14,270 bases of DNA from Okeania sp. (GCF_035285525.1 NZ_JAYKGW010000236.1:1-14270); one strand, 5' to 3'; positions 2,813 through 14,270 are shown, counted from the stretch's first letter. The notes: generated from the letters alone by a model not told the origin. Program-made: numbers and translations.

Positions 2813-3934
2813 TTAGTGAAATAAGTTTCCGAGGAATCCTTCTATACCTCCTTTTCCCGTACGTTCTCCTTTAATACTTGCCAATTTTTCCAATAACTCT
2901 CTTTCTTCAATAGTAACTTTTGTGGGAATATCTATTTCTATTGTAATTAAATGATCTCCACGACTTACCGGATTACCCAATTTTGGTACTCCCTTATCTT
3001 CCAAAGTTAAAACAGTATTTGGCTGAGTACCTGGTGGAATAATTAACTCCGACTTACCATCAACTGTATTAACTTCCAAAGAACAGCCTAAAATTGCTTG
3101 TAAATAACTAACTTTTAGTTGGGAAAGAATATTAATACCATCTCTTTTAAATTCTGGGTGATTTTTCACAGACAGAAAAACATACAAGTCTCCTGGAGGC
3201 CCACCCATCTTGCCTACATCTCCTTCATTAGATACTCGTAACCGAGTCCCATTGTCTACTCCCCCTGGGATAGTAATCTTAATCTTTTTCGTTACCTCGT
3301 TCTGGCCACGGCCTCCACAACTTATACATTTTTCCTCAATTATTTGTCCATTGCCATTACAGGAAGGACAAACTGAAACTTGAGTGAAACTACCAAAAGG
3401 AGTTCTTGTCGCTCGGCGAACTTGACCAGTACCTCCACAAGTTGAACAATTTTGAGGTCTTGTACCTGATTTCGCTCCTGAACCTTTGCAGGTTTCGCAA
3501 GTTTCAAGATGCTTAATAGTTAGTTCTTTATCTCCACCAAATATGGCATCCTGAAAGTCCAAACTCAGGTCTAAACGTAGGTCATCCCCTCTAGTCGGAC
3601 CTGTACGCCTACGTCCTTGAGTTCCCACTCCTCCGGAGAAACCACTAAAAAAGCTTTCAAATATATCAGCGAAGCTATCTGAAAAATCTGATGAAAAACC
3701 TGATGCTGCTCCCCCGGATACTCCTGCTTCTCCAAAGCGATCATAACGAGCCTTCATTTCTGAGTCAGAGAGAACTTCGTAAGCACTACTTATTTCTTTA
3801 AAGCGTTCTTCTGCTCCAGGCTCTTTATTCACATCTGGGTGGTACTTACGAGCCAAGCGACGGTAGGCACGCTTTAGTTCCTCCTTATCTGCTGTACGAG
3901 AAACACCTAGAATTTCGTAATAATCACGGGCCAT
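2813..3934 (-). CDS. dnaJ: Molecular chaperone DnaJ (type I Hsp40)
   Basis: 373 aa. It has a J domain with the HPD motif (KYHPDVNK), a G/F-rich linker and four CxxCxGxG zinc motifs ([32 protein letters not shown]), followed by the C-terminal substrate-binding domains. Confidence 0.97.
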
Positions 3935-4091
3935 AGAGCTATTTGCCTATATATAATTTAATGTTAGTTTGTCTGTTTGGAAATTTTATATTTTTATTTG
4001 GCGATTTTCTGCGTGGTATTTATTTCCCCATAGATTAATTATCGCCTTTCGTCAGTTTAACATAGAGTTACTTGAAAATCTACATTATTGA

Positions 4092-4818
4092 TAATTAGGG
4101 TTTGCGCTTCTTCAGTCTTTTTCTAGGAGTAGGGGAGCGCTTTGGTAGGGGAGTAGAGGAGCAAGAAAGTAATTTTTTTTGCCCAACGATCTGCTTAAAA
4201 TTGTAACTTTTTGATTTTTCAGCGATTTATCGGGAACCGTACCGTGCATTAAGCAGCTCAAAACCAGGTACTTTTTACCTGTCTAAAAATGCTAAAAACT
4301 TTATCTGTAAAGGCTTTTAGATTTAATCAGCAAATCCTAATTAGGATTTGCTGAAAAAGTAGAGGTAGAAGCCAGAAGCCAGAATCCAGAAGGAATACTC
4401 ATTATAGAAGAAGTAATCAGAAGAATCGTTCCTTAATTTTCTACCCTTATGTTGCCAAAAATCCTAGATTTTTGAAGCATTACTACCTAAAAGCTGGTAC
4501 TTTATTAGTATCTGAAAATTGTCAAACCTTAAGCTCGTCAAGATTTTGATATTTAATCAACAAGCCCTAATTAGGTTTTGCTGAAAAAAGCAGAGGGTGG
4601 GAAGTGTCGGAAGTGTCGGAAGTGTCGGAAGATAGAGAAAGTAGGAGGAATAATTTTTTCTTGATTTTTCTACCCTTGGCCTCCCTAAAATCCTAAAATT
4701 CATGATTTTTCCGGAACCGTCCTTGAGATATCTAAAAGCGACTAATTTTTCCATACCTAAAAATGCTAAAAGCTTTATCTATAAAATGCTTTTAGATTTA
4801 ATCAGCAAGTCCTAATTA
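4092..4818. repeat. Family-A modular repeat, three tandem units (246, 230, 245 bp), each with a different short-tandem-repeat core
   Basis: Unit boundaries are at TAATTA 4092, 4338, 4568 and 4813. The junctions are palindromes (cagcaaatcc-taatta-ggatttgctg). Cores are GTAGGGGAG-like (4125-4165), heptamer agaagcc x~4 (4367-4393) and 9-mer gaagtgtcg x3 (4601-4627). The shared scaffold is aatttttt, gatttttc, (c)gggaaccgt, cctaaaaatgctaaaa.ctttatct.taaa.gcttttagatttaatcagcaa. Confidence 0.85.
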
Positions 4819-4946
4819 CACATCTGCGGAAAAGAAATAGGCAATAGGGGGAAGTAATTCATAATTTCTGGATCAGAATTGATTTTATGTTTTTCTTTTT
4901 GGAGATGTCTATTGAATAATGAATATTATAGATAATGAATTCCATA

Positions 4947-6983
4947 CTACAGAAAAGGATTTTTGTCAAATTCATTCTCAGGATTATTAGTTGTTTCCTG
5001 AACTTCAGTTGAATTTACCTCACTTGTAATTGAGTTAGTATCAGTAAATGTCTCACTTTCTACAGAATCTTGAGAAATTTCTGATTCTGTAATTTTTGGT
5101 TCTTCTTCTTGAGTTTGAGGCATCTCAGAACTTGGTTCCTTTTCTAATAAGTTTAGCTTTTCATTTGCTCCTTTTTCATATAAAGTTCCACCTACAGCAA
5201 ATAGTTTTTCTCTAAATACTTGAACTTGCTGATTTAGTTGGTCGTAATTCACTTCAGTTTCAGAATTACTCAAAACTTGCTTTAATTCCTCATAACTATT
5301 CTGAACTTCTGTCCCTAACTCTTCATCAATTAAACCACCATATTCTTTGACAGTTGCTTCATAATTATATAAAAGAGTATCTGCCTGATTTGTCAATTCT
5401 ACTAATTGTTTTTGTTTATTATCTTCTTCTGCATAAACTTCTGCTTCTTCCTGCATTCGTTGAATTTCTGTATCATTTAAACCACCTGTATTACTAATTT
5501 CAATACCTTGTTCTTTACCTGTTCCTTGGTCTATAGCTTTAACTTTCAAAATTCCATTAGCATCTATATCAAAATTCACTTCTATTTGTGGTATTCCTCT
5601 GGGAGCTGGAGGAATTCCTTTTAGCAAAAATCGACCTAGACTTTTATTATCTTGTACCATTGCTCGCTCACCCTGGAGAACATGGATTTCTACAGAAGTT
5701 TGTCCATCGGCAGCAGTAGAATACATTTGGGAACGACTGGTAGGAATTGTGGTATTTCTCTCAATCACCTTAGTACATATTCCTCCCAAAGTTTCTAAAC
5801 CGAAGGATAGAGGTACCACATCCAATAATAGAAGGTCTTTCAGTTCACCTCCTAAAATACCTGCTTGAATAGCTGCCCCCAAGGCCACAGCTTCATCAGG
5901 ATTCACAGAAGTATCAGGAACTTTTCCATTAAAAAAATTACTTATTGCTGTTTGAACTATAGGTATCCTAGTAGAGCCTCCTACCAGAATAATCCTGTCT
6001 ATATTTTCGGGTTTGATCTCAGCATCTTTCAGGGCTTGTTCTACTGGTTTAATGGTACTTTCAACCAAAGGATGAACTAATTTTTCAAATTGAGCGCGAG
6101 TGAGGTAGGTTTCCAAATGCTTTGGTCCTATTTCATTAGCAGTAATAAATGGTAAATTGATATTTGTATTATTGGTAGAAGATAGTTCTATTTTGGCCTT
6201 TTCTGCTGCATCTCTAAGTCTTTGTACAGCCATTTTATCGGGAAATAAATCTATCCCTTCCTGTTCTTTGAACTGATCTATTAACCAATTAACTATACAA
6301 TTATCAAAATCATCTCCTCCCAGATGATTATTACCAGAAGTAGCCTTAACTTCAAATATTCCATCTCCTAACTGCAAGATAGAAACATCAAAAGTTCCTC
6401 CACCTAGGTCAAAAACTAAGATTGTTTGATCTTTATCCTGTTTATCTATACCATAAGATAGTGCAGCTGCAGTTGGTTCATTAATAATTCGTAGCACCTC
6501 CAGACCAGCAATAATTCCTGCATCTTTAGTTGCTTGTCTCTGTGCATCTGTAAAATATGCTGGTACTGTAATTACTACTTGAGTGACAGAATCACCTAGA
6601 TATTTTTCCGCATTCTGCTTCATTTTTTGCAGAATCATGGCTGAAATTTCTTGGGGAGTATAATTTTTTTCCTTAATGTGGACATCTACAGTATTGTCTT
6701 TACCCTCAACAGTTTTGTAGGGAACCCGGGAGCGTTCATCTTCTGTATCATCCCATCTTCTCCCAATAAATCTTTTGATACTATAGATTGTATTTACAGC
6801 ATTGGTTACTAATTGTCGTTTGGCAACTTGGCCAATTAAACGGTCGTTGGCTTTGCCAAATCCTACAATACTGGGCGTTGTACGTCCACCTTCTGAGTTA
6901 GGAATTACAATTGGTTTTCCTCCCTCTAAGACGGCCATACAACTATTTGTTGTCCCTAAATCAATGCCAATGACTTTTCCCAT
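4947..6983 (-). CDS. dnaK: Molecular chaperone DnaK (Hsp70), grpE-linked paralogue with an acidic Ser/Thr/Glu-rich C-terminal tail
   Basis: 678 aa with canonical Hsp70 signatures [38 protein letters not shown] and [10 protein letters not shown], plus the substrate-binding domain. The last ~70 aa are low-complexity. Confidence 0.97.
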
Positions 6984-7206
6984 AGTTTTTCGGAGTTATT
7001 ATATAATTTAGTCAAAAATTTCTATTCTTTTATCATAATGAATCTTTCAATCTTCCGTGTTTTACTAAGTCTTGAAAAGCAGAAAAATATCTAGATTTTT
7101 TATTCCTTTATTAGCTGAATAACTACGTTTTTTAGATAAAAAAATATATAGCAATTGTATTTTATTTGTGTATAAAAGTTTTACTAATTTTAGGTAAAAG
7201 GGAACA

Positions 7207-7326
7207 GGTAATTTCAGTTCTTAATAGACAGTGAACCGCTGACTAAAATCGGAGGCTTGAAATACTGATTTGAAATTTTTCATACCCTGAAAAGGGGAGG
7301 CTTTATACCTCCTTTTTTGGTAAAAG
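7207..7326. repeat. Family-B MITE-like element, copy B3 (inverted, 120 bp, no nested insert)
   Basis: The reverse complement reads cttttacc aaaaaaggaggtataaagcctccccttttcagggtatgaaaaa tttcaaatcagtatttcaagcctccga...ggttcact...gaaattacc. ggtaaaag occurs at both edges (7196-7203 and 7319-7326). Confidence 0.7.
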
Positions 7327-7713
7327 TTTGAGTTTTTTCATCTACTTTTTGATTTGTCGTCACCTATTTAGGATTGCTTGAAGTAGTGGTATGAAATCAA
7401 TTAGGAATTTTTTTTCATAAATGATTATAACCATAAAAAATAATTTATGAGAAAAAACTCTAGGCATTTGGTCTGCAAATATCTTGGAGCTGGGGTTTGG
7501 AGACCAAACCCAGCATTTATAAATCTTACAACCTATTTAGGATTGCTATACTTAACTAAGTTGTATCCAGAAAAAAATCTTCAGTTAAATTTCTACAATC
7601 ATTTAGATTGAATTTTTAACATTTGTGTTTATATTGTGGCTGATTTTATTTAGGTCTGAATACAACTTAAACTTAAAAGATCGGATAATCTAGTCAGAAT
7701 TAACTAACCAATA

Positions 7714-8433
7714 TTAATTTTCTGGTTCAGTTTGATTTTCTGTTTCATCATCTGTAGATTCTGGTACTGTTGCTACTTTTACCATAGCGTGTCGAAGTAT
7801 GCGATCGCCTATAATATAACCTCGGACTAATTCTTCTATTACTGTTCCTTCTGGATACTGTGTAGTTTCTTCTCGCATTACTGCTTCATGTAGATTGGGG
7901 TCAAATTCTTGACCTTCTGGACGCATCGCAGAAACTCCTAACTTTTTCAAAGAGTCTACCATTTGTTTATAGACACTTTGATAGCTTTTATGGATAGTCA
8001 TTTCTCCATCATTTGCTGGTTTTATCTGGGAACGAGCACGCTCAAAGTTGTCAATTACTGGTAGTAATTCAATAATTGTGGCACACTTTACCTGTAAGTC
8101 TAATTCTTCTTTTTCTTTTTGTGTTCGTTTCCGGAAGTTATCAAAGTCTGCTCCTAATCTTTTGTATTGACTTTCTTTTTCTTCTAGTTGAAGATTGGCA
8201 CTTTCTAACTGATTTTGTGATGCTTCATAAGCTTCTTTTAATAATACTATTTCTGGTGATGTTGTTGCAGAGTTTTGCTGCTCTGTTTCTACAGAGATAT
8301 TATCTTCAGAGACTTCTTGGTTATTCTCTACTGTTTGAGATGAATCTAAGTCTGGATTTTGCTCAAATATAACTTCAATATTTTCATTTATTTCTTGATT
8401 TTTTGTTTCTGTAGAAGGAATCTCTCCTGTCAT
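7714..8433 (-). CDS. grpE: Nucleotide exchange factor GrpE
   Basis: 239 aa. It has an acidic low-complexity N-terminus, then a coiled-coil region (DFDNFRKRTQKEKEE) and the GrpE beta-domain (GTVIEELVRGYIIGDRILRHAMVKV). An AGGAG Shine-Dalgarno sequence lies ~9 nt upstream of the ATG. Confidence 0.93.
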   Translation of the reverse strand: MTGEIPSTETKNQEINENIEVIFEQNPDLDSSQTVENNQEVSEDNISVETEQQNSATTSPEIVLLKEAYEASQNQLESANLQLEEKESQYKRLGADFDNFRKRTQKEKEELDLQVKCATIIELLPVIDNFERARSQIKPANDGEMTIHKSYQSVYKQMVDSLKKLGVSAMRPEGQEFDPNLHEAVMREETTQYPEGTVIEELVRGYIIGDRILRHAMVKVATVPESTDDETENQTEPEN

Positions 8434-8523
8434 TTAATTTTCTCCTAATGCCTAATCTAAGATTATTACTATTTATTGTTTGGCTTTTCTCCCTGATTTA
8501 TCATAATCAAGAAGTAATACAGA

Positions 8524-8546
8524 AACACTGAAATTATAACAGTGTT
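8524..8546 (-). promoter_or_regulatory. Inverted repeat AACACTG-N9-CAGTGTT centred on a TATAAT hexamer, ~90 nt upstream of grpE
   Basis: The minus strand reads aacactgTTATAATttcagtgtt, a 7-bp perfect inverted repeat enclosing a consensus -10 box. No good -35 is found at 17 nt. Operator or promoter function is inferred only. Confidence 0.3.
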
Positions 8547-8595
8547 AATATCAAGTTTATATTAATTGTAGCTATTTTCATAGCCTGGAATTTAA

Positions 8596-8653
8596 GACAT
8601 AGGGCAGAAGACATAGGACAGAAGACATAGGACAGAAGACAGAAGGCGGAAGG
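8596..8653. repeat. STRR-like tandem array, 14-nt unit gacatagg(g/a)cagaa x3 plus a degenerate tail
   Basis: Units at 8596-8609, 8610-8623 and 8624-8637, then gacagaaggcggaagg. Confidence 0.9.
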
Positions 8654-8677
8654 AAAAGGTTTTTGTTGGTATCGGGA

Positions 8678-8705
8678 GTAGGGATGTTCCATGAAACGTC
8701 CCTAC
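8678..8705. repeat. Hairpin repeat GTAGGGATGTT-CCATG-AAACGTCCCTAC
   Basis: ~11-bp stem (one G-T pair) with a short loop. A degenerate second copy (agggatgttccatgtaaccgcctctctac) lies at ~14049-14077. Confidence 0.7.
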
Positions 8706-8760
8706 AGAATCAATATAAGGATGGAAGTTATGGAGGTGGTAGTTATTTATAATAGTAGTA

Positions 8761-8936
8761 TTTTTTCTACCAAAAAATCAGGTCTAAAGTCTCCTCTTTT
8801 AAGTCGAGAGATGGATGGGTTCCCTAAGCATATCTAATCGACCAAGAGAAACATTTAACTTCAGTATTTTAAGTCTCTGAGTTGAGTCGGAGGTTCACTC
8901 TTTACTGATAACTGATAACTGATAACCGAAATAACC
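8761..8936. repeat. Family-B MITE-like element, copy B2 (176 bp) with a 47-bp nested insert
   Basis: Same module order as B1. The insert 8804-8850 (tcgagagatggatgggttccctaagcatatctaatcgaccaagagaa) matches the right part of the B1 insert. It ends with ctgataa x3 (8905-8925) and gaaataacc. Confidence 0.8.
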
Positions 8937-9249
8937 TCCTGTTACACCAAAATATTAACTTGAGGAACCTGAGTTATCTAACAACCTATGCTTTTTCGGA
9001 ACCTAAAAATGCTAAATTTTTTATATGTTATGAAGTAAACATTCAGCTATTAGCATTCAGCATTAAGCTTTTGTAAAGAATTAAGCAATTCTAAGATTAG
9101 CTGATGAGCAATTTTATTTCCTAGCTGATAGCTGATAACTCACGTCTAAATGCTTAATTAGGCTAATTTTTTCTTGGCTGTAATAATAAGTTAATAACTC
9201 AAAGCTGATAGCTGATAAATGACGGCTAAATGCTTATATTATTAATGCT

Positions 9250-9267
9250 TTGCTGATTAATCAGCAA
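9250..9267 (-). terminator. 18-bp perfect palindrome ttgctgatt|aatcagcaa just 3' of the RTX1 stop
   Basis: Read directly from the sequence. It is part of a family-A repeat terminus (aatcagcaagtcctaatta). No U-run follows, so terminator function is speculative. Confidence 0.3.
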
Positions 9268-9270
9268 GTC

Positions 9271-10473
9271 CTAATTATCAATGAAAATATCAAATGCTTC
9301 TAGTTCAGGACTTCCTTTTAAACGTGCAAATAAACCACCACTACCAAATCCATTATTGCTGCCATTTTCGTTGTAATATAAATCGCCATTGCTTCGATCG
9401 TAAACAATAAAAGCATCACTATTTTCTGCTGCCTCATTATTGTTAACAATCTCAAATTCTTGTTCTTCTAGTAGACTTCCGATGAAAGTTTCTAGTCTGC
9501 TAAAAGTTGTTCGAGATAAAACAATAGTATCTTCACCTAACACAAAATCTACGATTGTATCTACACCTATATCCTGTTTCCGAAAATTACGACCTGTGTC
9601 ATAAACAAAAACATCTTTACCTTTACCACCAGTTAAAATATCATTTCCCGCTTCACCATAGAGGTCATCATTACCACTTCCTCCATTAAGTTTGTCTTTA
9701 CCATTTCCTCCAATTAAAATATCATCTCCTCCGCTACCTACAAGGTTATCATTTCCCTTTCCACCATTGAGGTCGTCATTACCACTTCCTCCATTAAGTT
9801 TGTCTTTGCCACTTCCTCCGATCAAAATATCATTTCCTCCTCTACCTATGAGGTTATCATTTCCTCCTTTGCCATCTAATTTTTCGTCTTTATTAGTACC
9901 TCTAAGAGTGTCTTTTTTTCCAGTTCCTATTCCTGTATCACTTTCTATTTTGGCGTATAAACCTGCTGTGGTTATACTATTTTCTAAGGCTGAAAGTTCT
10001 TCTGTAAATGTTAGACCATTATCTTGACTAAAGCCGAGTAATCTAATAGTATAATCGTTGTCTTTATACTGAAAACTACCGCTACTAATTTCATTCACAG
10101 GAATAACAAAATCAGCATCTTCTTCTGGGTCGTCACTACCAGGTGTTGATATTAGATTAAAGTCAAATTCAAAATTACCAGTAATTCTAGTTGGATCATA
10201 TAATTCTAGTTCTATATTTAGGGGTACTGATTCAACGTTTGTGCCTATATTAACTGAACCATTAAAATAGGTTAAGTTTCCTATTTTGAAGTTTTGATTC
10301 ACTTCAGTTGAGAAGGGATTAATGATAAAGTTCAGTTCGTTTCTGAATGTTTGTGGGTCTTCTCCCCATTTGAATGAGTGGGTATCAACACCTGCAAATA
10401 CGGGGAAATCATTTTCTATCCCTGGAGTAGGTTCTCCCCATTTACCATTAAAAAAGCCTGCAAATTCTACCAT
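9271..10473 (-). CDS. Leaderless RTX-type calcium-binding protein (copy 1, intact) with an unknown N-terminal domain
   Basis: 400 aa. Residues ~200-290 hold about ten GGxGxDxLx nonapeptides (GKGGNDNLIGRGGNDILIGGSGKDKLNGGSGNDDL...). The C-terminal module (DTIVDF..GEDTIVLS...FIVYDRSNGDLYYNENGSNNGFGSGGLFARL) is common in cyanobacterial hemolysin-type Ca-binding proteins. The N-terminal ~185 aa have no signal peptide and no motif I can name with certainty. Confidence 0.85.
   Translation of the reverse strand: MVEFAGFFNGKWGEPTPGIENDFPVFAGVDTHSFKWGEDPQTFRNELNFIINPFSTEVNQNFKIGNLTYFNGSVNIGTNVESVPLNIELELYDPTRITGNFEFDFNLISTPGSDDPEEDADFVIPVNEISSGSFQYKDNDYTIRLLGFSQDNGLTFTEELSALENSITTAGLYAKIESDTGIGTGKKDTLRGTNKDEKLDGKGGNDNLIGRGGNDILIGGSGKDKLNGGSGNDDLNGGKGNDNLVGSGGDDILIGGNGKDKLNGGSGNDDLYGEAGNDILTGGKGKDVFVYDTGRNFRKQDIGVDTIVDFVLGEDTIVLSRTTFSRLETFIGSLLEEQEFEIVNNNEAAENSDAFIVYDRSNGDLYYNENGSNNGFGSGGLFARLKGSPELEAFDIFIDN
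9661..9876. repeat. In-frame 108-bp tandem duplication inside RTX1 (9661-9768 and 9769-9876)
   Basis: The two 108-bp copies differ at roughly 15 positions by eye. Each encodes four nonapeptides (36 aa). The paralogue at 12675-13763 has only one copy. Confidence 0.9.
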
Positions 10474-10642
10474 GATTAAGTTAGGTTATTTGATGCAATT
10501 GAGTAACTATAATTGATAGTTTACATCATACAAGTATTATCGATCCGTAGTTAGGGATGTTTGATATTTTCTTTATCTTGGGGAATACTATTTTAATAAT
10601 TAATTATTAATTATTATTTCTGCCTAAAAGATGGAGAATTAA

Positions 10643-10739
10643 ACTATATTTTCTGGTTAAAAACAGAATTTAATTTGTAGGAGTTGTGGGTGGATACCGA
10701 GATTTTGATTCACTTTTTGAAGATGTAGATAAGGGTTAA
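10643..10739 (+). pseudogene. ParE/RelE-family toxin 3' remnant with an in-frame TAA
   Basis: It translates LYFLVKNRI*FVGVVGGYRDFDSLFEDVDKG*. This aligns with the C-terminus of the parE at 12279-12584 (IFYFQGKNRIEVVRVVSGYRDLDKLFEDMDKS*). TAA at 10671-10673 sits where the other copy has GAA. No recognisable N-terminal half lies upstream. Confidence 0.55.
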
Positions 10740-10875
10740 TTTACTATTTAAACATTTTATGAAGCTCCCAAATAGGGGAGTTGTGTGATGAAAATTTCCT
10801 ACTGTTTCACAATAGCTAATTCATTTTGTGAAGTTCCCGACTACTCCCATTACGCTCTAAGATTACCGAAAGATT

Positions 10876-10908
10876 GTAGGTTGGGTTGAGGTACGAAACC
10901 CAACCTAC
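10876..10908. repeat. Perfect 12-bp-stem hairpin gtaggttgggtt-N9-aacccaacctac
   Basis: Read directly from the sequence. A related GGGTTT/AAACCC hairpin lies at ~7490-7516 (gctggggtttgg agac caaacccagc). Confidence 0.85.
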
Positions 10909-11033
10909 CTTATAGGAAATCTTCCACTATTTTAATAATGGATACTTACCTCTCCCTAAAATTTAGTCCAGTAGTGGACTGTTTCATCTAAAACTGTGCA
11001 TTAGCTTTGAACTTGAAAATTCTTAATGCATCA

Positions 11034-11070
11034 CTTTTGAATTTTAACTTTTGAATTCAATTTTAGAATT
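11034..11070. repeat. TTTTGAA-type degenerate heptamer array, inverted partner of 11687-11757
   Basis: cttttgaattttaacttttgaattcaattttagaatt. It overlaps the last 9 codons and the stop of the 212-aa ORF. Confidence 0.7.
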
Positions 11071-11682
11071 GCTATATTCTTGAAATGGCTGCAAAATAAT
11101 TCCTAAAATTTTATCAATTTCTTTAACATAATATTCCCCTACATCTATACGCACAATTTTTTCTTCAAGTGTTAAAAATTTCCAATTTGTTCCAGTTGTA
11201 ACTGCACCATAAATAACCTTAACTGAATTACCACAACGCTGATTAAATAATTGCCCTCCCACCATACTAGCAACACATTGTCCTAAACCACGAATAATAT
11301 TTTCATTTTTAGCTTCAACAATAGTAATAACTGGAGCAGTAATAAAATATTGTGCAGAGGAAAAACTGAGCAAAAAATCACAATATCCTTGTAATCCTAA
11401 TTCTGCTTCTACATTAAACTCTGTTCCCGAAAAAAGACTAATTTGATAATTTAATTGTCGTCTAACTTCAGCTAAAATTTGCGAAATTAATAGTTCTGAA
11501 CGAGCTTTTCCTGTATTAATAGCAGTTGCTAAGGGAATATATTCTCCTAAAATAGTTGTGAGAATTTCCGAAGGTTTAATTGGTTGAATTTTAGGAAATA
11601 AATCTTGATTTTCTTCTAAAGTTAATTCAAAATTTATTTTGGCATTTTCTAGTGTAAATTTACTGTAAGAAAGATTGCTCAT
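11044..11682 (-). CDS. Orphan PD-(D/E)xK nuclease-fold protein (HsdR N-terminal-domain-like)
   Basis: 212 aa. The motif order is E63 (KARSELLI), D102 (GYCDFLL), E123-A-K125 (ITIVEAKNE), Q135 and TTGTNWKF, matching the restriction-endonuclease-like core. No methylase, specificity, helicase or ATPase partner is present in the window. Confidence 0.6.
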   Translation of the reverse strand: MSNLSYSKFTLENAKINFELTLEENQDLFPKIQPIKPSEILTTILGEYIPLATAINTGKARSELLISQILAEVRRQLNYQISLFSGTEFNVEAELGLQGYCDFLLSFSSAQYFITAPVITIVEAKNENIIRGLGQCVASMVGGQLFNQRCGNSVKVIYGAVTTGTNWKFLTLEEKIVRIDVGEYYVKEIDKILGIILQPFQEYSNSKIEFKS

Positions 11683-11686
11683 GGAA

Positions 11687-11757
11687 ATTCAAAATTCAAA
11701 ATTCAAAATTCAAAAGTAAGAATTGAAAAGTCAAAATTGCAAAGGGAATTCAAAATT
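11687..11757. repeat. STRR-like heptamer array attcaaa x4 plus a degenerate tail, starting 5 nt upstream of the 212-aa ORF start
   Basis: There are four perfect copies at 11687-11714. These are followed by agtaagaattgaaaagtcaaaattgcaaagggaattcaaaatt. Confidence 0.85.
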
Positions 11758-11996
11758 ATAACAGTTTTTATTATAGGGGAAATTCATTAGAATATTTAGC
11801 TAATGAGTAAAACATGGAAATTCAAAAGTATAGGGATTTTGATGATAAGGAAAATTCATTTGAGTAGCCATCTTTAGAGGCTAAATGCCATTTGCTCCTG
11901 GGATAATATGACCGTTACGTGTGTAAGTCCTGTAAATATTATTATTGTATAGTTTATAATTACTATCAAAAGAATGTTTACCTAATCAGTAAAACT

Positions 11997-12278
11997 ATGG
12001 ATATTGTCTTAACTCCAGATATAGAAAAACTTGTTGAAGAGCAAATTGAAACTGGAAACTATCAGGATGCTCTGGCAGTTATTCGGGAAGGGTGACAATT
12101 ATTGGTAGAAAGAGAGAGGATTTATAAAGGAAAATTCTACCAACTTAAAAAAGAAGTGGAAATTGGCATTGAAGAATTAAAGCGAGGTGAAATATTGGAT
12201 GGTGAAGCAGTATTTTATGAATTAGAAAAAGATATTAGGCAAATAGAAATTGCAATGGAACACAGAGGTAAAAATTAA
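11997..12278 (+). pseudogene. parD: ParD/CopG-type antitoxin interrupted by one in-frame TGA (codon 33)
   Basis: Hand translation gives MDIVLTPDIEKLVEEQIETGNYQDALAVIREG*QLLVERERIYKGKFYQLKKEVEIGIEELKRGEILDGEAVFYELEKDIRQIEIAMEHRGKN*. This fits the ParD pattern (..SLTPELE.FV...V..G.Y.SASEVIREALRLL.E). TGA lies at 12093-12095. The stop abuts the next ATG (TAAATG). Confidence 0.7.
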
Positions 12279-12584
12279 ATGGGTAGATATATTATTGCTT
12301 CTCCAGCACGATTAGATTTAAAAGAAATTAATACTTATCTATCTCAAAAAAATCCACAAGCAGCAAAAAAACTACAAGCAAAAATTAGAGAAAAGTGCAG
12401 ATAATTAGCAGATTTTTCAGGAATGGGGTGTAACCGTGAAAAGTTAGCTTTAGGATTAAGAAGTTTTCCTGTGGATGATTATCTTATCTTTTATTTTCAG
12501 GGTAAAAACAGAATTGAAGTTGTACGAGTCGTGAGTGGATATCGAGATTTAGATAAACTTTTTGAGGATATGGATAAGAGTTAA
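12279..12584 (+). pseudogene. parE: ParE/RelE-family toxin interrupted by one in-frame TAA (codon 42)
   Basis: Hand translation gives MGRYIIASPARLDLKEINTYLSQKNPQAAKKLQAKIREKCR*LADFSGMGCNREKLALGLRSFPVDDYLIFYFQGKNRIEVVRVVSGYRDLDKLFEDMDKS*. It shows the typical ParE features (A..DL..I..Y, L..FP.MG, LRSFPV..YLIFY, IEVVRV..G.RDL). TAA lies at 12402-12404. Confidence 0.75.
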
Positions 12585-12602
12585 TTTAGTATTAATTGAA
12601 TA

Positions 12603-12636
12603 GGGCAACCATTAGTAGATTGCCCCTAATTTTTTA
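12603..12636 (+). terminator. Putative intrinsic terminator after parE
   Basis: gggcaa (12603-12608) pairs with ttgccc (12620-12625) around an 11-nt loop. It is followed by ctaa and tttttt (12630-12635). Confidence 0.45.
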
Positions 12637-12674
12637 TTCTTTAATTATATAAGCGTTTCCTACGGAATGCTTAC

Positions 12675-13763
12675 TTAATTATCAATGAAGAAATCACTCG
12701 CTTGTAGTTCAGGAGTTGTTTCTAAACGGGCGAATAAACCACCACTACCAAATCCATTATTACTGCCATTTTGGTTATAGTATAAATTGCCATTATTTTG
12801 ATTGTAAACAATAAAAGCATTACTATTACTTGCGGCACTGTTAGTATTAACAACTTCAAATTATTGCAGTATATTTCCTGGTACAGTTTCTATTTCATTG
12901 AAGGTAGTTCGAGATAGAATAATAGTATCTTCATCTAACACAAAATCGACTATTTTATCTACTCCTACATCCCGTTTCCGAAAATTACGACCTGTGTCAT
13001 AAATAAAGTTATCTGCTCCACCACCACCAATTAAGGTATCATTTCCGGGTCCACCATAGAGGTCGTCATTTCCACCTCCTCCATTAAGTCTATCTTTACC
13101 ATTTCCTCCAATCAAAATATCATCTCCTCCCTTACCTATGAGGCTATCATTTCCTCCTTTACCATCTAATCTTTCGTCTTTATTAGTACCTCTAAGGGTT
13201 TCTTTTTTTCCAGTTCCTATTCCTTTATCAATTTCTATTCTGGCATACAAACCTGCTGTTGTTCTGGCGTTTTCAAATACTTTAAATTCTTCTGTAAATG
13301 TTTTACCTTTGTCTTGACTAAATCCTAGTAATCTAATTGTGTAATCTTTTCCTTTAGAGCTGAAACTACCATTACTAACCTTACTTAAAGGAAAGACAAA
13401 ATCAGCAGCTTCTTCTGGATCGTCACTAGAAGGTGTTGTAACAATATCAAAGTCAAAGTCAAAAGATTCAGTACGTCTAGTAGGATTATATAGTTCTAGT
13501 TCTATTTCCAGAGGTACTGATTCAACATTTGAACCAGTTGAACCATTAAAATAGATTAAATCTCCTACTTTAAACTTTTTATTTAGTTGAGTAGAGAAAG
13601 GATTAATTACAAAGCTCAGTTCATTTGGGTATGTTCTAGAGTTTCCTATTTCCCCCCACTTGAATGAGTGGGTTTCAACACCTTCAAATACAGCAGAAGA
13701 GATACTTTCCCCTCGAATAGGTTCTCCCCATTTACCATTAAAAAAACCTTTAAATTCTACCAT
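12675..13763 (-). pseudogene. RTX-type calcium-binding protein paralogue (copy 2) with a single in-frame TAA at codon 301
   Basis: The track ORF 12861-13763 (300 aa) ends at TAA 12861-12863. The same frame then continues open for 61 more codons (FEVVNTNSAASNSNAFIVYNQNNGNLYYNQNGSNNGFGSGGLFARLETTPELQASDFFIDN*) to TAA 12675-12677, colinear with the C-terminus of copy 1. Copy 1 has CAA GAA TTT GAG where copy 2 has CAA TAA TTT GAA. Confidence 0.85.
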
Positions 13764-14270
13764 GATAGTTATTTGATCAAATCTAGGAAGTATTGATTGA
13801 GATTTTAATTCATCAAAACATTATTCATAATATCTGCACATTTTTTTTATATTGGCTTTTTCTATCCCTCCTACCCTCCTTTCAAACCTATGGTTTATAA
13901 ACATCTTTCTCTTTTCATAAAACTTCTAGTGATAACTGATAACTGAAATGGTGAAGGGAGATTTCGGGGAATTTTCAATCTACTTTGAGCGATCGCTTAA
14001 AACAATAACTAAATATTAGGCAAAAGTGCTGGAAAGCTTATAAATATAGGGATGTTCCATGTAACCGCCTCTCTACTGATAACTATATAAGCGATCGCTT
14101 ATTAGCACAAGTTGAATTAAAAATCATGCGTATAGACGAACAACCCCAGTCGAATTTCATTATATCAAATTTTCGGTCCCAACGCAAGGGCATCTTTTTT
14201 AGGGGCGCGATTTTTTCTTGGGGGTAGCTCTCACAAAATGAACATCTTGGTACTTTGCTACTGATATGAG

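Follow-up and report, generated by a model that had tools for sequence, protein, structure and literature searches.

ParDE type II toxin-antitoxin modules, such as those of RK2 and Caulobacter, are recognised by the antitoxin profiles PF03693 and TIGR02606 and the toxin profile PF05016, and ParE proteins are gyrase-poison-type toxins. RTX exoproteins of the type I secretion route carry GGxGxD nonapeptide repeats (PF00353) and a conserved C-terminal block and lack a recognisable N-terminal signal peptide; linkage to type I secretion genes is common but not obligatory. The choice-of-anchor K family (NF038131) is related to the THxN PEP-CTERM proteins. Stand-alone proteins of ~200 aa with a D...ExK motif make up the PADLOC family PD_DExK (PDLC01472, labelled 'CAS-associated'), and Shah et al. 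2018 (PMC6546367) list among the type III CRISPR accessories a cluster named 'PD-DExK' (cluster 45, represented by Marme_0670). Members of all these families stand together on a 14,270-nt contig of the marine cyanobacterium Okeania sp. (GCF_035285525.1, NZ_JAYKGW010000236.1:1-14270), the whole of which we refer to as the window. At 9271-13763, beside grpE, lie two RTX genes (RTX1 and RTX2), parD and parE, a parE relic and a gene for a 212-aa PD-(D/E)xK protein, and a sequence-only reading had likened this islet to a variable or defence-type islet. Here, we report that the islet is likely to be a lineage-specific variable locus made of known gene families and not a functional system. Every islet gene belongs to a catalogued family, and the islet is a new instance of known gene kinds in a variable locus. 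A false lead is averted: of the five islet genes, three have become pseudogenes, and the genes stand together through linkage inherited at a single variable locus.

Intact and interrupted genes of the islet

Both genes of the toxin-antitoxin pair are interrupted (Table 1). In parD an in-frame TGA stands at 12093-12095, a private nonsense change from the TTA (Leu) found in Okeania SIO3I5 (L004) and in a Microcoleaceae metagenome-assembled genome (L009), and parE has an in-frame TAA in place of CAA at 12402-12404. Because each open reading frame (ORF) carries a nonsense codon, the module reads as two dead pseudogenes, a relic and not a working pair; its location (11997-12584, plus strand) and families had been called correctly from sequence. 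With described ParDE modules the window shares the co-oriented, antitoxin-first order, in which the parD stop abuts the parE start (TAAATG), typical sizes of ~93 and 101 aa, a clear ParE profile match (PF05016 on the read-through: 4e-17, 62.9 bits, cut-off 23, with 88 of 89 profile positions covered) and an intact orthologous pair in Okeania KiyG1. It differs in the nonsense codon in both genes, in an extra parE 3' fragment 1.8 kb away and in a ParD match below the curated cut-offs (read-through with TIGR02606: 3e-10, 40 bits, cut-off 46.2; with PF03693: 0.003, 18.5 bits, cut-off 21). The parD read-through has 81% amino acid identity to the ParD of KiyG1, which is intact and partnered by an intact ParE, and the KiyG1 locus (L090 7952-11092, with parD of 93 aa, parE of 101 aa and an RTX gene of 363 aa, all intact) serves best as a reference when the ancestral toxin-antitoxin module is considered. 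The extra fragment, already recognised as a parE remnant from sequence, was also found by tblastn and is 83% identical to KiyG1 parE.

At the parE stop, the window and SIO3I5 have an AGA-TAA haplotype in common, and the intact 101-aa gene of KiyG1 reads AGG-CAA. Because the parE stop is shared with SIO3I5 and the parD stop is private, we infer that the toxin was knocked out first and that the antitoxin, then useless, gained its nonsense codon later, which is the usual order of toxin-antitoxin decay. The locus offers a clean natural example of such toxin-first ParDE decay and also shows how genes of a small RTX/choice-of-anchor K family duplicate, diverge and are lost; a literature search on toxin-antitoxin pseudogenes found nothing specific. 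The SIO3I5 parE carries several further stops and a 124-nt insertion. This insertion (L004 9270-9400) lies just 3' of the shared TAA, has TGATAAT-type repeats at its start and may be a small inserted element. Stop-codon reassignment or read-through was considered for the parD, parE and RTX2 stops and rejected: two stop codon types are involved, the neighbouring housekeeping genes have normal reading frames and the sites hold sense codons in relatives.

RTX1 consists of an N-terminal choice-of-anchor K domain, ~9 RTX nonapeptides and a conserved C-terminal region ending ...DIFIDN. It shares with the NF038131 family a full-length domain match (2e-36, 125.5 bits, cut-off 30, profile positions 4-169 of 169), matches PF00353 over five stretches of GGxGxD nonapeptides (4e-26, 91 bits in all) and is already named 'choice-of-anchor K domain-containing protein' at NCBI. 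RTX2 also has a full-length NF038131 match (118.5 bits against 30) and a PF00353 match (45.5 bits), and its reading frame is broken by a GAA-to-TAA change at 12861-12863 after 300 codons, followed by 61 further in-frame conserved codons to 12675. This stop appears to be recent because it replaces a Glu kept by all relatives in the alignment (13 of 13). It removes the last 61 residues, including the C-terminal region that would serve in export, and RTX2 is probably non-functional; the 300-aa product is also encoded in the Logan assembly of SRR19514071. ORF calls placed both genes where the sequence-only reading had put them (a 400-aa ORF at 9271-10473 and a paralogue from 13763, both on the minus strand). 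Its estimate of roughly two thirds amino acid identity compares with the 71% found over 360 aligned residues; DNA identity is 80-91% in several blocks that total more than 1 kb, far beyond chance. The read-through of RTX2, given there as 361 aa, runs to 12675.

RTX1 has a private expansion of 36 residues (four nonapeptides) relative to RTX2, the synonymous divergence (dS) between them is 0.43, and the ratio of non-synonymous to synonymous divergence (dN/dS) is 0.40 before the RTX2 stop and 0.35 after it. In a neighbour-joining tree RTX1 is a long branch outside the clade in which RTX2 groups with the orthologues P0402, P0399 and P0395; the first two are encoded on contigs that carry PD-DExK, and the third at the KiyG1 locus, which does not. 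The family with the RTX1 architecture is narrow (~17 near-full-length relatives, the named ones from Okeania), and searches of the literature on choice-of-anchor domains and on Trichodesmium RTX proteins found nothing specific. The RTX1 structure model, with a predicted local distance difference test (pLDDT) score of 55, was too poor for fold comparison.

RTX1 shares the GGxGxD repeats with RTX type I exoproteins. It keeps the C-terminal block conserved among its relatives, no signal-like N-terminal sequence is recognisable by eye, and we regard it as a probable type I secretion substrate. Proteins of this type differ from the exoproteins in being small (~363-400 aa) and in having no linked ABC transporter or membrane-fusion gene, none of which is present in the 14.3-kb window or at the related loci L001, L005 and L090. 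RTX1 is the sole live exoprotein of the islet. From established knowledge of RTX proteins, it would be exported through an unlinked type I secretion system by means of its C-terminal region; its beta-roll would fold once extracellular Ca2+ is bound, with the choice-of-anchor K domain on display.

The 212-aa protein can be placed in the PD-(D/E)xK family, as the sequence-only reading had proposed, by its motif (D102, E123-A-K125, Q135) and by the PADLOC profile match, which covers residues 58-204. It is no orphan: it has 5492 protein matches, which form 1910 clusters at 50% identity, and full-length orthologues 59-67% identical to it occur in Nostoc, Scytonema, Microcoleus, Coleofasciculus and Leptolyngbyaceae. 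Among 32 sequences, D102 is kept in 31 (one Gly), E123 in all but one (Lys), and K125 and Q135 in every one; the window protein departs only once, by E110A, from the columns conserved at ≥95%. The gene is intact and under strong constraint. Neither Pfam nor NCBIfam gave a match. The AlphaFold2 model (pLDDT 85) has an order of helices and strands compatible with the alpha-beta-beta-beta-alpha-beta core. Foldseek matches in the PDB were all weak (mitoribosomal protein chains, 0.015, which we take to have a restriction-endonuclease-like fold; a putative restriction-endonuclease domain protein, 9y1l, 0.12; CinB, 0.19), and a PDB sequence search returned nothing. The protein probably acts alone as a metal-dependent nuclease. 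This cyanobacterial family of ~5500 sequences, very well conserved, uncharacterised and without a Pfam or NCBIfam model, would be a reasonable target for biochemical work.

Table 1. Features of the window and of loci in other genomes (L numbers)
Feature	Location	Strand	Remarks
rsgA	915-2063	minus	
tusA-like gene	2042-2356	minus	
dnaJ	2813-3934	minus	
dnaK	4947-6983	minus	
grpE	7714-8433	minus	
Non-coding stretch, end of grpE-side synteny to RTX1	8585-9270		short dispersed and tandem repeats
RTX1, intact 400-aa exoprotein gene	9271-10473	minus	NF038131 and PF00353 matches
parE 3'-end relic	10647-10750	plus	~34 codons ending GYRDFDSLFEDVDKG and stop; 102 nt at 10647-10748 84% identical to 12492-12593
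Repeat unit, single copy in window	10753-10839		76-nt period in relatives; 81-87-nt matches to arrays at L003 11156-11471 and L004 7026-7341
TTTGAAT-type heptamer repeat	11033-11057		overlaps nuclease gene 3' end; arm of inverted repeat I1
Stand-alone PD-(D/E)xK nuclease-family gene, intact, 212 aa	11044-11682	minus	PADLOC PD_DExK, 1e-46
parD antitoxin pseudogene	11997-12278	plus	TIGR02606 and PF03693 on read-through
parE toxin pseudogene	12279-12584	plus	PF05016 on read-through
RTX2, truncated choice-of-anchor K/RTX gene	12675-13763	minus	start 13763; TAA at 12861-12863
~145-nt repeat, one unit	14110-14263		relatives' arrays lie between ftsH and PD-DExK
~145-nt repeat array	L001 5073-9899		12 copies
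~145-nt repeat array	L004 7518-9093		6 copies
~145-nt repeat array	L006 7641-9249		3 copies
~145-nt repeat array	L007 9086-9692		3 copies
~145-nt repeat	L090 9022-9673		
Clade locus	L090 (KiyG1)		parDE intact, RTX intact, nuclease absent
Clade locus	L001, L005		parDE relic, RTX, nuclease
Clade locus	L004 (Okeania SIO3I5), L009		parDE, nuclease; no RTX
Clade locus	L003, L006, L008, L081		small relics, nuclease
Clade locus	L007		RTX C-terminal relic, nuclease
Clade locus	L002		nuclease only
Clade locus	L088		parD relic, RTX; no nuclease
R-M cluster	L019 5547-12520, L032 5470-12568		order hsdM, PD-DExK, hsdS
R-M cluster	L023		hsdM upstream of PD-DExK
R-M cluster	L022, L026 5365-12458		inserted Uma2 gene upstream, hsdS downstream of PD-DExK
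Nuclease neighbour, Ham1/RdgB	Microcoleus		16 members
Nuclease neighbour, phosphoglucomutase	Microcoleus		13 members
Nuclease neighbour, CPBP protease	Nostoc		11 members
Nuclease neighbour, geranylgeranyl-reductase-like flavoprotein	Nostoc		8 members

Gene content of the locus among relatives

A comparative map of 12 related loci from the Okeania/Trichodesmium/Dapis clade gives a common order of ftsH, parE/parD on the opposite strand, RTX, PD-DExK and, farther on, a gene for a 577-aa membrane protein. All pairwise combinations of the components are seen across these loci and each component is missing somewhere (Table 1), which points to independent gain and loss of parDE, RTX and PD-DExK across lineages. 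Gene order also varies between genomes, and the window reads RTX2, parE, parD, nuclease, parE relic, RTX1. The components are lost differentially, and the adjacency is therefore one of inherited linkage and not of an obligate module. To arrive at the order in the window, which departs from the common one, parDE-RTX material would have to have been duplicated at least once, with deletions in addition. In the model that we favour, the clade has kept a space between ftsH and the 577-aa membrane-protein gene that holds a varying mix of parD-parE, RTX, PD-(D/E)xK and repeat arrays; the locus would carry parD-parE in divergent orientation and one choice-of-anchor K/RTX gene, and in the window this material would have been duplicated and reshuffled through segmental duplication and subsequent differential deletion.

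Co-location of parDE, RTX and PD-DExK is limited to the ftsH-proximal locus of this one clade. We surveyed 80 species-level loci with a PD-DExK orthologue, ~70 of them from distant species. The triad that the sequence-only reading had proposed to look for in other genomes is adjacent in one clade, but the loci of the ~70 distant species are without it, and beside their nuclease there is neither a close homologue of this parDE pair nor an RTX gene of this type; unrelated parD(E)-like genes (31-33% identity) occur near the nuclease at L035 and L069. The immediate neighbours in these species are mostly housekeeping genes, and clustering of the neighbours recovered synteny at genus level only. Coincidental adjacency had been pictured from sequence as homologues that are never neighbours elsewhere, in a region that is syntenic core in related strains. 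Half of that picture holds: the genes are neighbours in other genomes, but only by descent.

Competing explanations

Several observations weigh against the variable-locus reading. The nuclease family has defence-flavoured links elsewhere, namely the 'CAS-associated' label, the type III accessory cluster and restriction-modification (R-M) clusters in Rivularia: in five Rivularia-type genomes a PD-DExK orthologue (65-67% identical) lies inside type I R-M gene clusters (Table 1), and in three of them (L019, L026 and L032) a 777-779-aa ORF farther upstream has a putative HsdR-like N-terminus. The co-location of parDE, RTX and PD-DExK persists across several genera of the clade, and, with the parE relic beside RTX1 suggesting that RTX was copied along with parDE, a degree of selective linkage is possible. 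Moreover, each of the three stops is due to one substitution, the contig is short and derived from a metagenome, and a second assembly, probably built from the same reads, shows only the RTX2 stop. These links would fit an ftsH-proximal hot spot for defence and addiction genes, in which the PD-(D/E)xK protein is a stand-alone defence nuclease with parDE as its spent companion or stabiliser and with the RTX genes as bystanders, so that the islet is what erosion has left of a small defence island. We consider this unlikely. The nuclease does match the PADLOC PD_DExK profile, which we assume to derive from cluster 45, and the locus is repeat-rich and variable. However, most species examined have housekeeping neighbours, a defence gene with fast turnover would not usually stay 60-67% identical across orders, the R-M association was seen in a single clade, where it is probably a single event, and PADLOC finds no second defence gene in the window. 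Although the 212-aa protein shares a strong profile match, a stand-alone size of ~200 aa and the D...ExK motif with the 'PD-DExK' CRISPR accessory family, neither cas genes nor CRISPR arrays lie near the window gene or its 80 orthologues (no array within 10 kb; only tandem arrays with a 76-nt period turned up), and the cyanobacterial orthologues are highly conserved and mostly in housekeeping contexts. The window resembles defence islands and other variable islets in its variability, repeats, synteny break and combination of a toxin-antitoxin module with a nuclease. It differs from them in having no recognised defence system, integrase, transposase or tRNA-flanked boundary, in a GC content equal to that of the rest of the contig and in a content that is inherited within the clade, not horizontally assembled. 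The PADLOC scan suggested by the sequence-only reading returned the single-gene PD_DExK match but no multi-gene system, RTX1, ParD and ParE being without a match. The 'defence-type' part of its description is not supported, given that no system was found, parDE and one RTX gene are inactivated, the triad occurs at one inherited locus only and the nuclease of distant species mostly adjoins housekeeping genes. A broader version makes the ~205-aa PD-(D/E)xK protein a cyanobacteria-wide defence or genome-surveillance nuclease, repeatedly placed beside defence or addiction genes, and the islet the eroded trace of such a partnership. Its partners could be parDE in Okeania/Trichodesmium, hsdM and hsdS in Rivularia and type III CRISPR loci elsewhere; we judge this version quite improbable and allow a defence role for the nuclease family only a small chance. 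The remaining lead is the PD-(D/E)xK nuclease inside the type I R-M clusters of the Rivularia clade. That RTX, nuclease and ParDE act as one functional module, for example a secreted effector with immunity or addiction, is hardly credible and is already largely refuted by differential loss. Co-location does recur in several assemblies of the Okeania/Trichodesmium clade, and the parE relic adjoins RTX1 as the parE gene adjoins RTX2, but each component is missing in some relatives while others stay intact, three of the five module genes are nonsense-interrupted here (the nuclease and RTX1 are intact), gene order is unequal between genomes and the triad does not co-occur outside the clade.

The junction with grpE raises a separate question. 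In Dapis (L084), Okeania KiyG1 (L086) and Trichodesmium (L091), pilB-pilT-pilC lies divergently upstream of grpE-dnaK-dnaJ-tusA-rsgA. Homology of the window to Dapis stops at base 8584, and the islet appears to replace pilBTC at grpE or to separate the two; the stop of synteny at ~8585 points to a rearrangement or else to an assembly joint that is unverified. The pilBTC genes at this place in three genera, the end of Dapis homology and the patchwork in relatives together uphold the 'variable islet' of the sequence-only reading, which had put it downstream of the chaperone cluster when it is on the 5' (promoter) side of grpE. The juxtaposition might be a chimera assembled at the repeats near 9120-9240 instead of a biological rearrangement: the 14.3-kb contig is an assembly of metagenome type, 34-nt direct repeats (9123-9156 and 9203-9236) occur at the joint, related genera have pilBTC at the islet position, and an independent Logan contig from the grpE side (L083), which matches 7522-9212 at 100%, ends inside these repeats. 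We think a chimera unlikely as well, because the deposited contig is continuous across the joint, Okeania and Trichodesmium genomes are known to be repeat-rich and rearranged, and homology to Dapis is lost already at 8585, well before the repeats, within sequence confirmed by the second assembly. Independent assembly support stops at 9212, and the last 60 nt before RTX1 rest on the deposited contig only; exact look-ups with GrpE and RTX2 gave Logan contigs of 1.2-1.7 kb that do not extend the window, and those with the nuclease and RTX1 sequences found no contig. A chimera at this joint would leave the reading of the islet itself unchanged, because the right-hand part of the window matches the ftsH-proximal locus of relatives, including the ~145-nt repeat.

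Repeats and flanking genes

The ~145-nt repeat forms arrays of up to 12 copies in relatives, all in the same orientation and with a period of ~280-340 nt (Table 1). On the strand co-oriented with ftsH, the units contain a promoter-like TTGCAT-17-TATCAT motif (TTGCGT-17-TATAAT in the window's unit), then a weak G-U-rich hairpin and a T-run. With no Rfam match and no covariation support, the repeat could be a tandem small-RNA array or an element resembling a miniature inverted-repeat transposable element. The unit at 14110-14263 marks the right end of the window as belonging to this variable locus.

The non-coding stretch beside RTX1 contains a 14-mer four times at 8594-8663 (AAGACATAGGGCAG) and CTGATAA heptamers in addition to the 34-nt direct repeats. 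Tandem heptamer and 14-mer repeats, as runs of CTGATAA and of AATTCAAA, are also present at 8903-8922, 11685-11731 and 13927-13946. Such repeats are common throughout the intergenic DNA and look like the short tandemly repeated sequences that filamentous cyanobacteria have. The inverted repeat I1 (25 nt, 92% complementary) has its arms at 11033-11057 and 11693-11717, the latter inside the heptamer block 11685-11731. These inverted heptamers around the nuclease were considered as ends of a mobile element and rejected in favour of a generic short repeat, given that Nostoc and Okeania loci have the same heptamer run at places unrelated to this one. The repeat unit with a 76-nt period forms head-to-tail arrays of at least five copies in Okeania and Dapis relatives (L003 11148-11515, L004 7026-7341, L006 6820-7133). 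CRISPR was rejected as an explanation for these arrays, in which whole units repeat without spacers. A ~35-nt hairpin-forming sequence (GTAGGTTGGGTTGAGGTACGAAACCCAACCTACC) at 10868-10908 has copies that are 88-97% identical in Nostoc, Microcoleus and other distant cyanobacterial loci and is a widely dispersed short repeat.

GC content is ~35% across the whole contig, without a compositional step at the islet. The nearest relatives of GrpE are from Dapis (81%) and Trichodesmium (75-79%), followed by named Okeania (~73%). Because GrpE is closest to Dapis and Trichodesmium, the source organism is an oscillatorian of the Trichodesmium/Okeania group (Oscillatoriales), and the Nostocales frame of the sequence-only reading does not apply to this Okeania contig. 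Its statement that type I secretion, transposase and integrase genes are absent was correct: ORF and domain scans found none anywhere in the window, small intergenic ORFs included. A Pfam scan of 10 of the small intergenic ORFs gave nothing, which rules out transposase or integrase relics at Pfam sensitivity. A permissive Rfam scan of the whole window gave only tRNA-Cys (182-253) and one chance match to a long non-coding RNA, with no known RNA family in the islet, and promoter and terminator scans found sites no more numerous than in shuffled controls. The chaperone cluster has unusually long spacers of 0.45-1.0 kb, between tusA and dnaJ (2357-2812), dnaJ and dnaK (3935-4946) and dnaK and grpE (6984-7713). 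These spacers hold short segments with further copies at other Okeania loci, in keeping with the group's low coding density.

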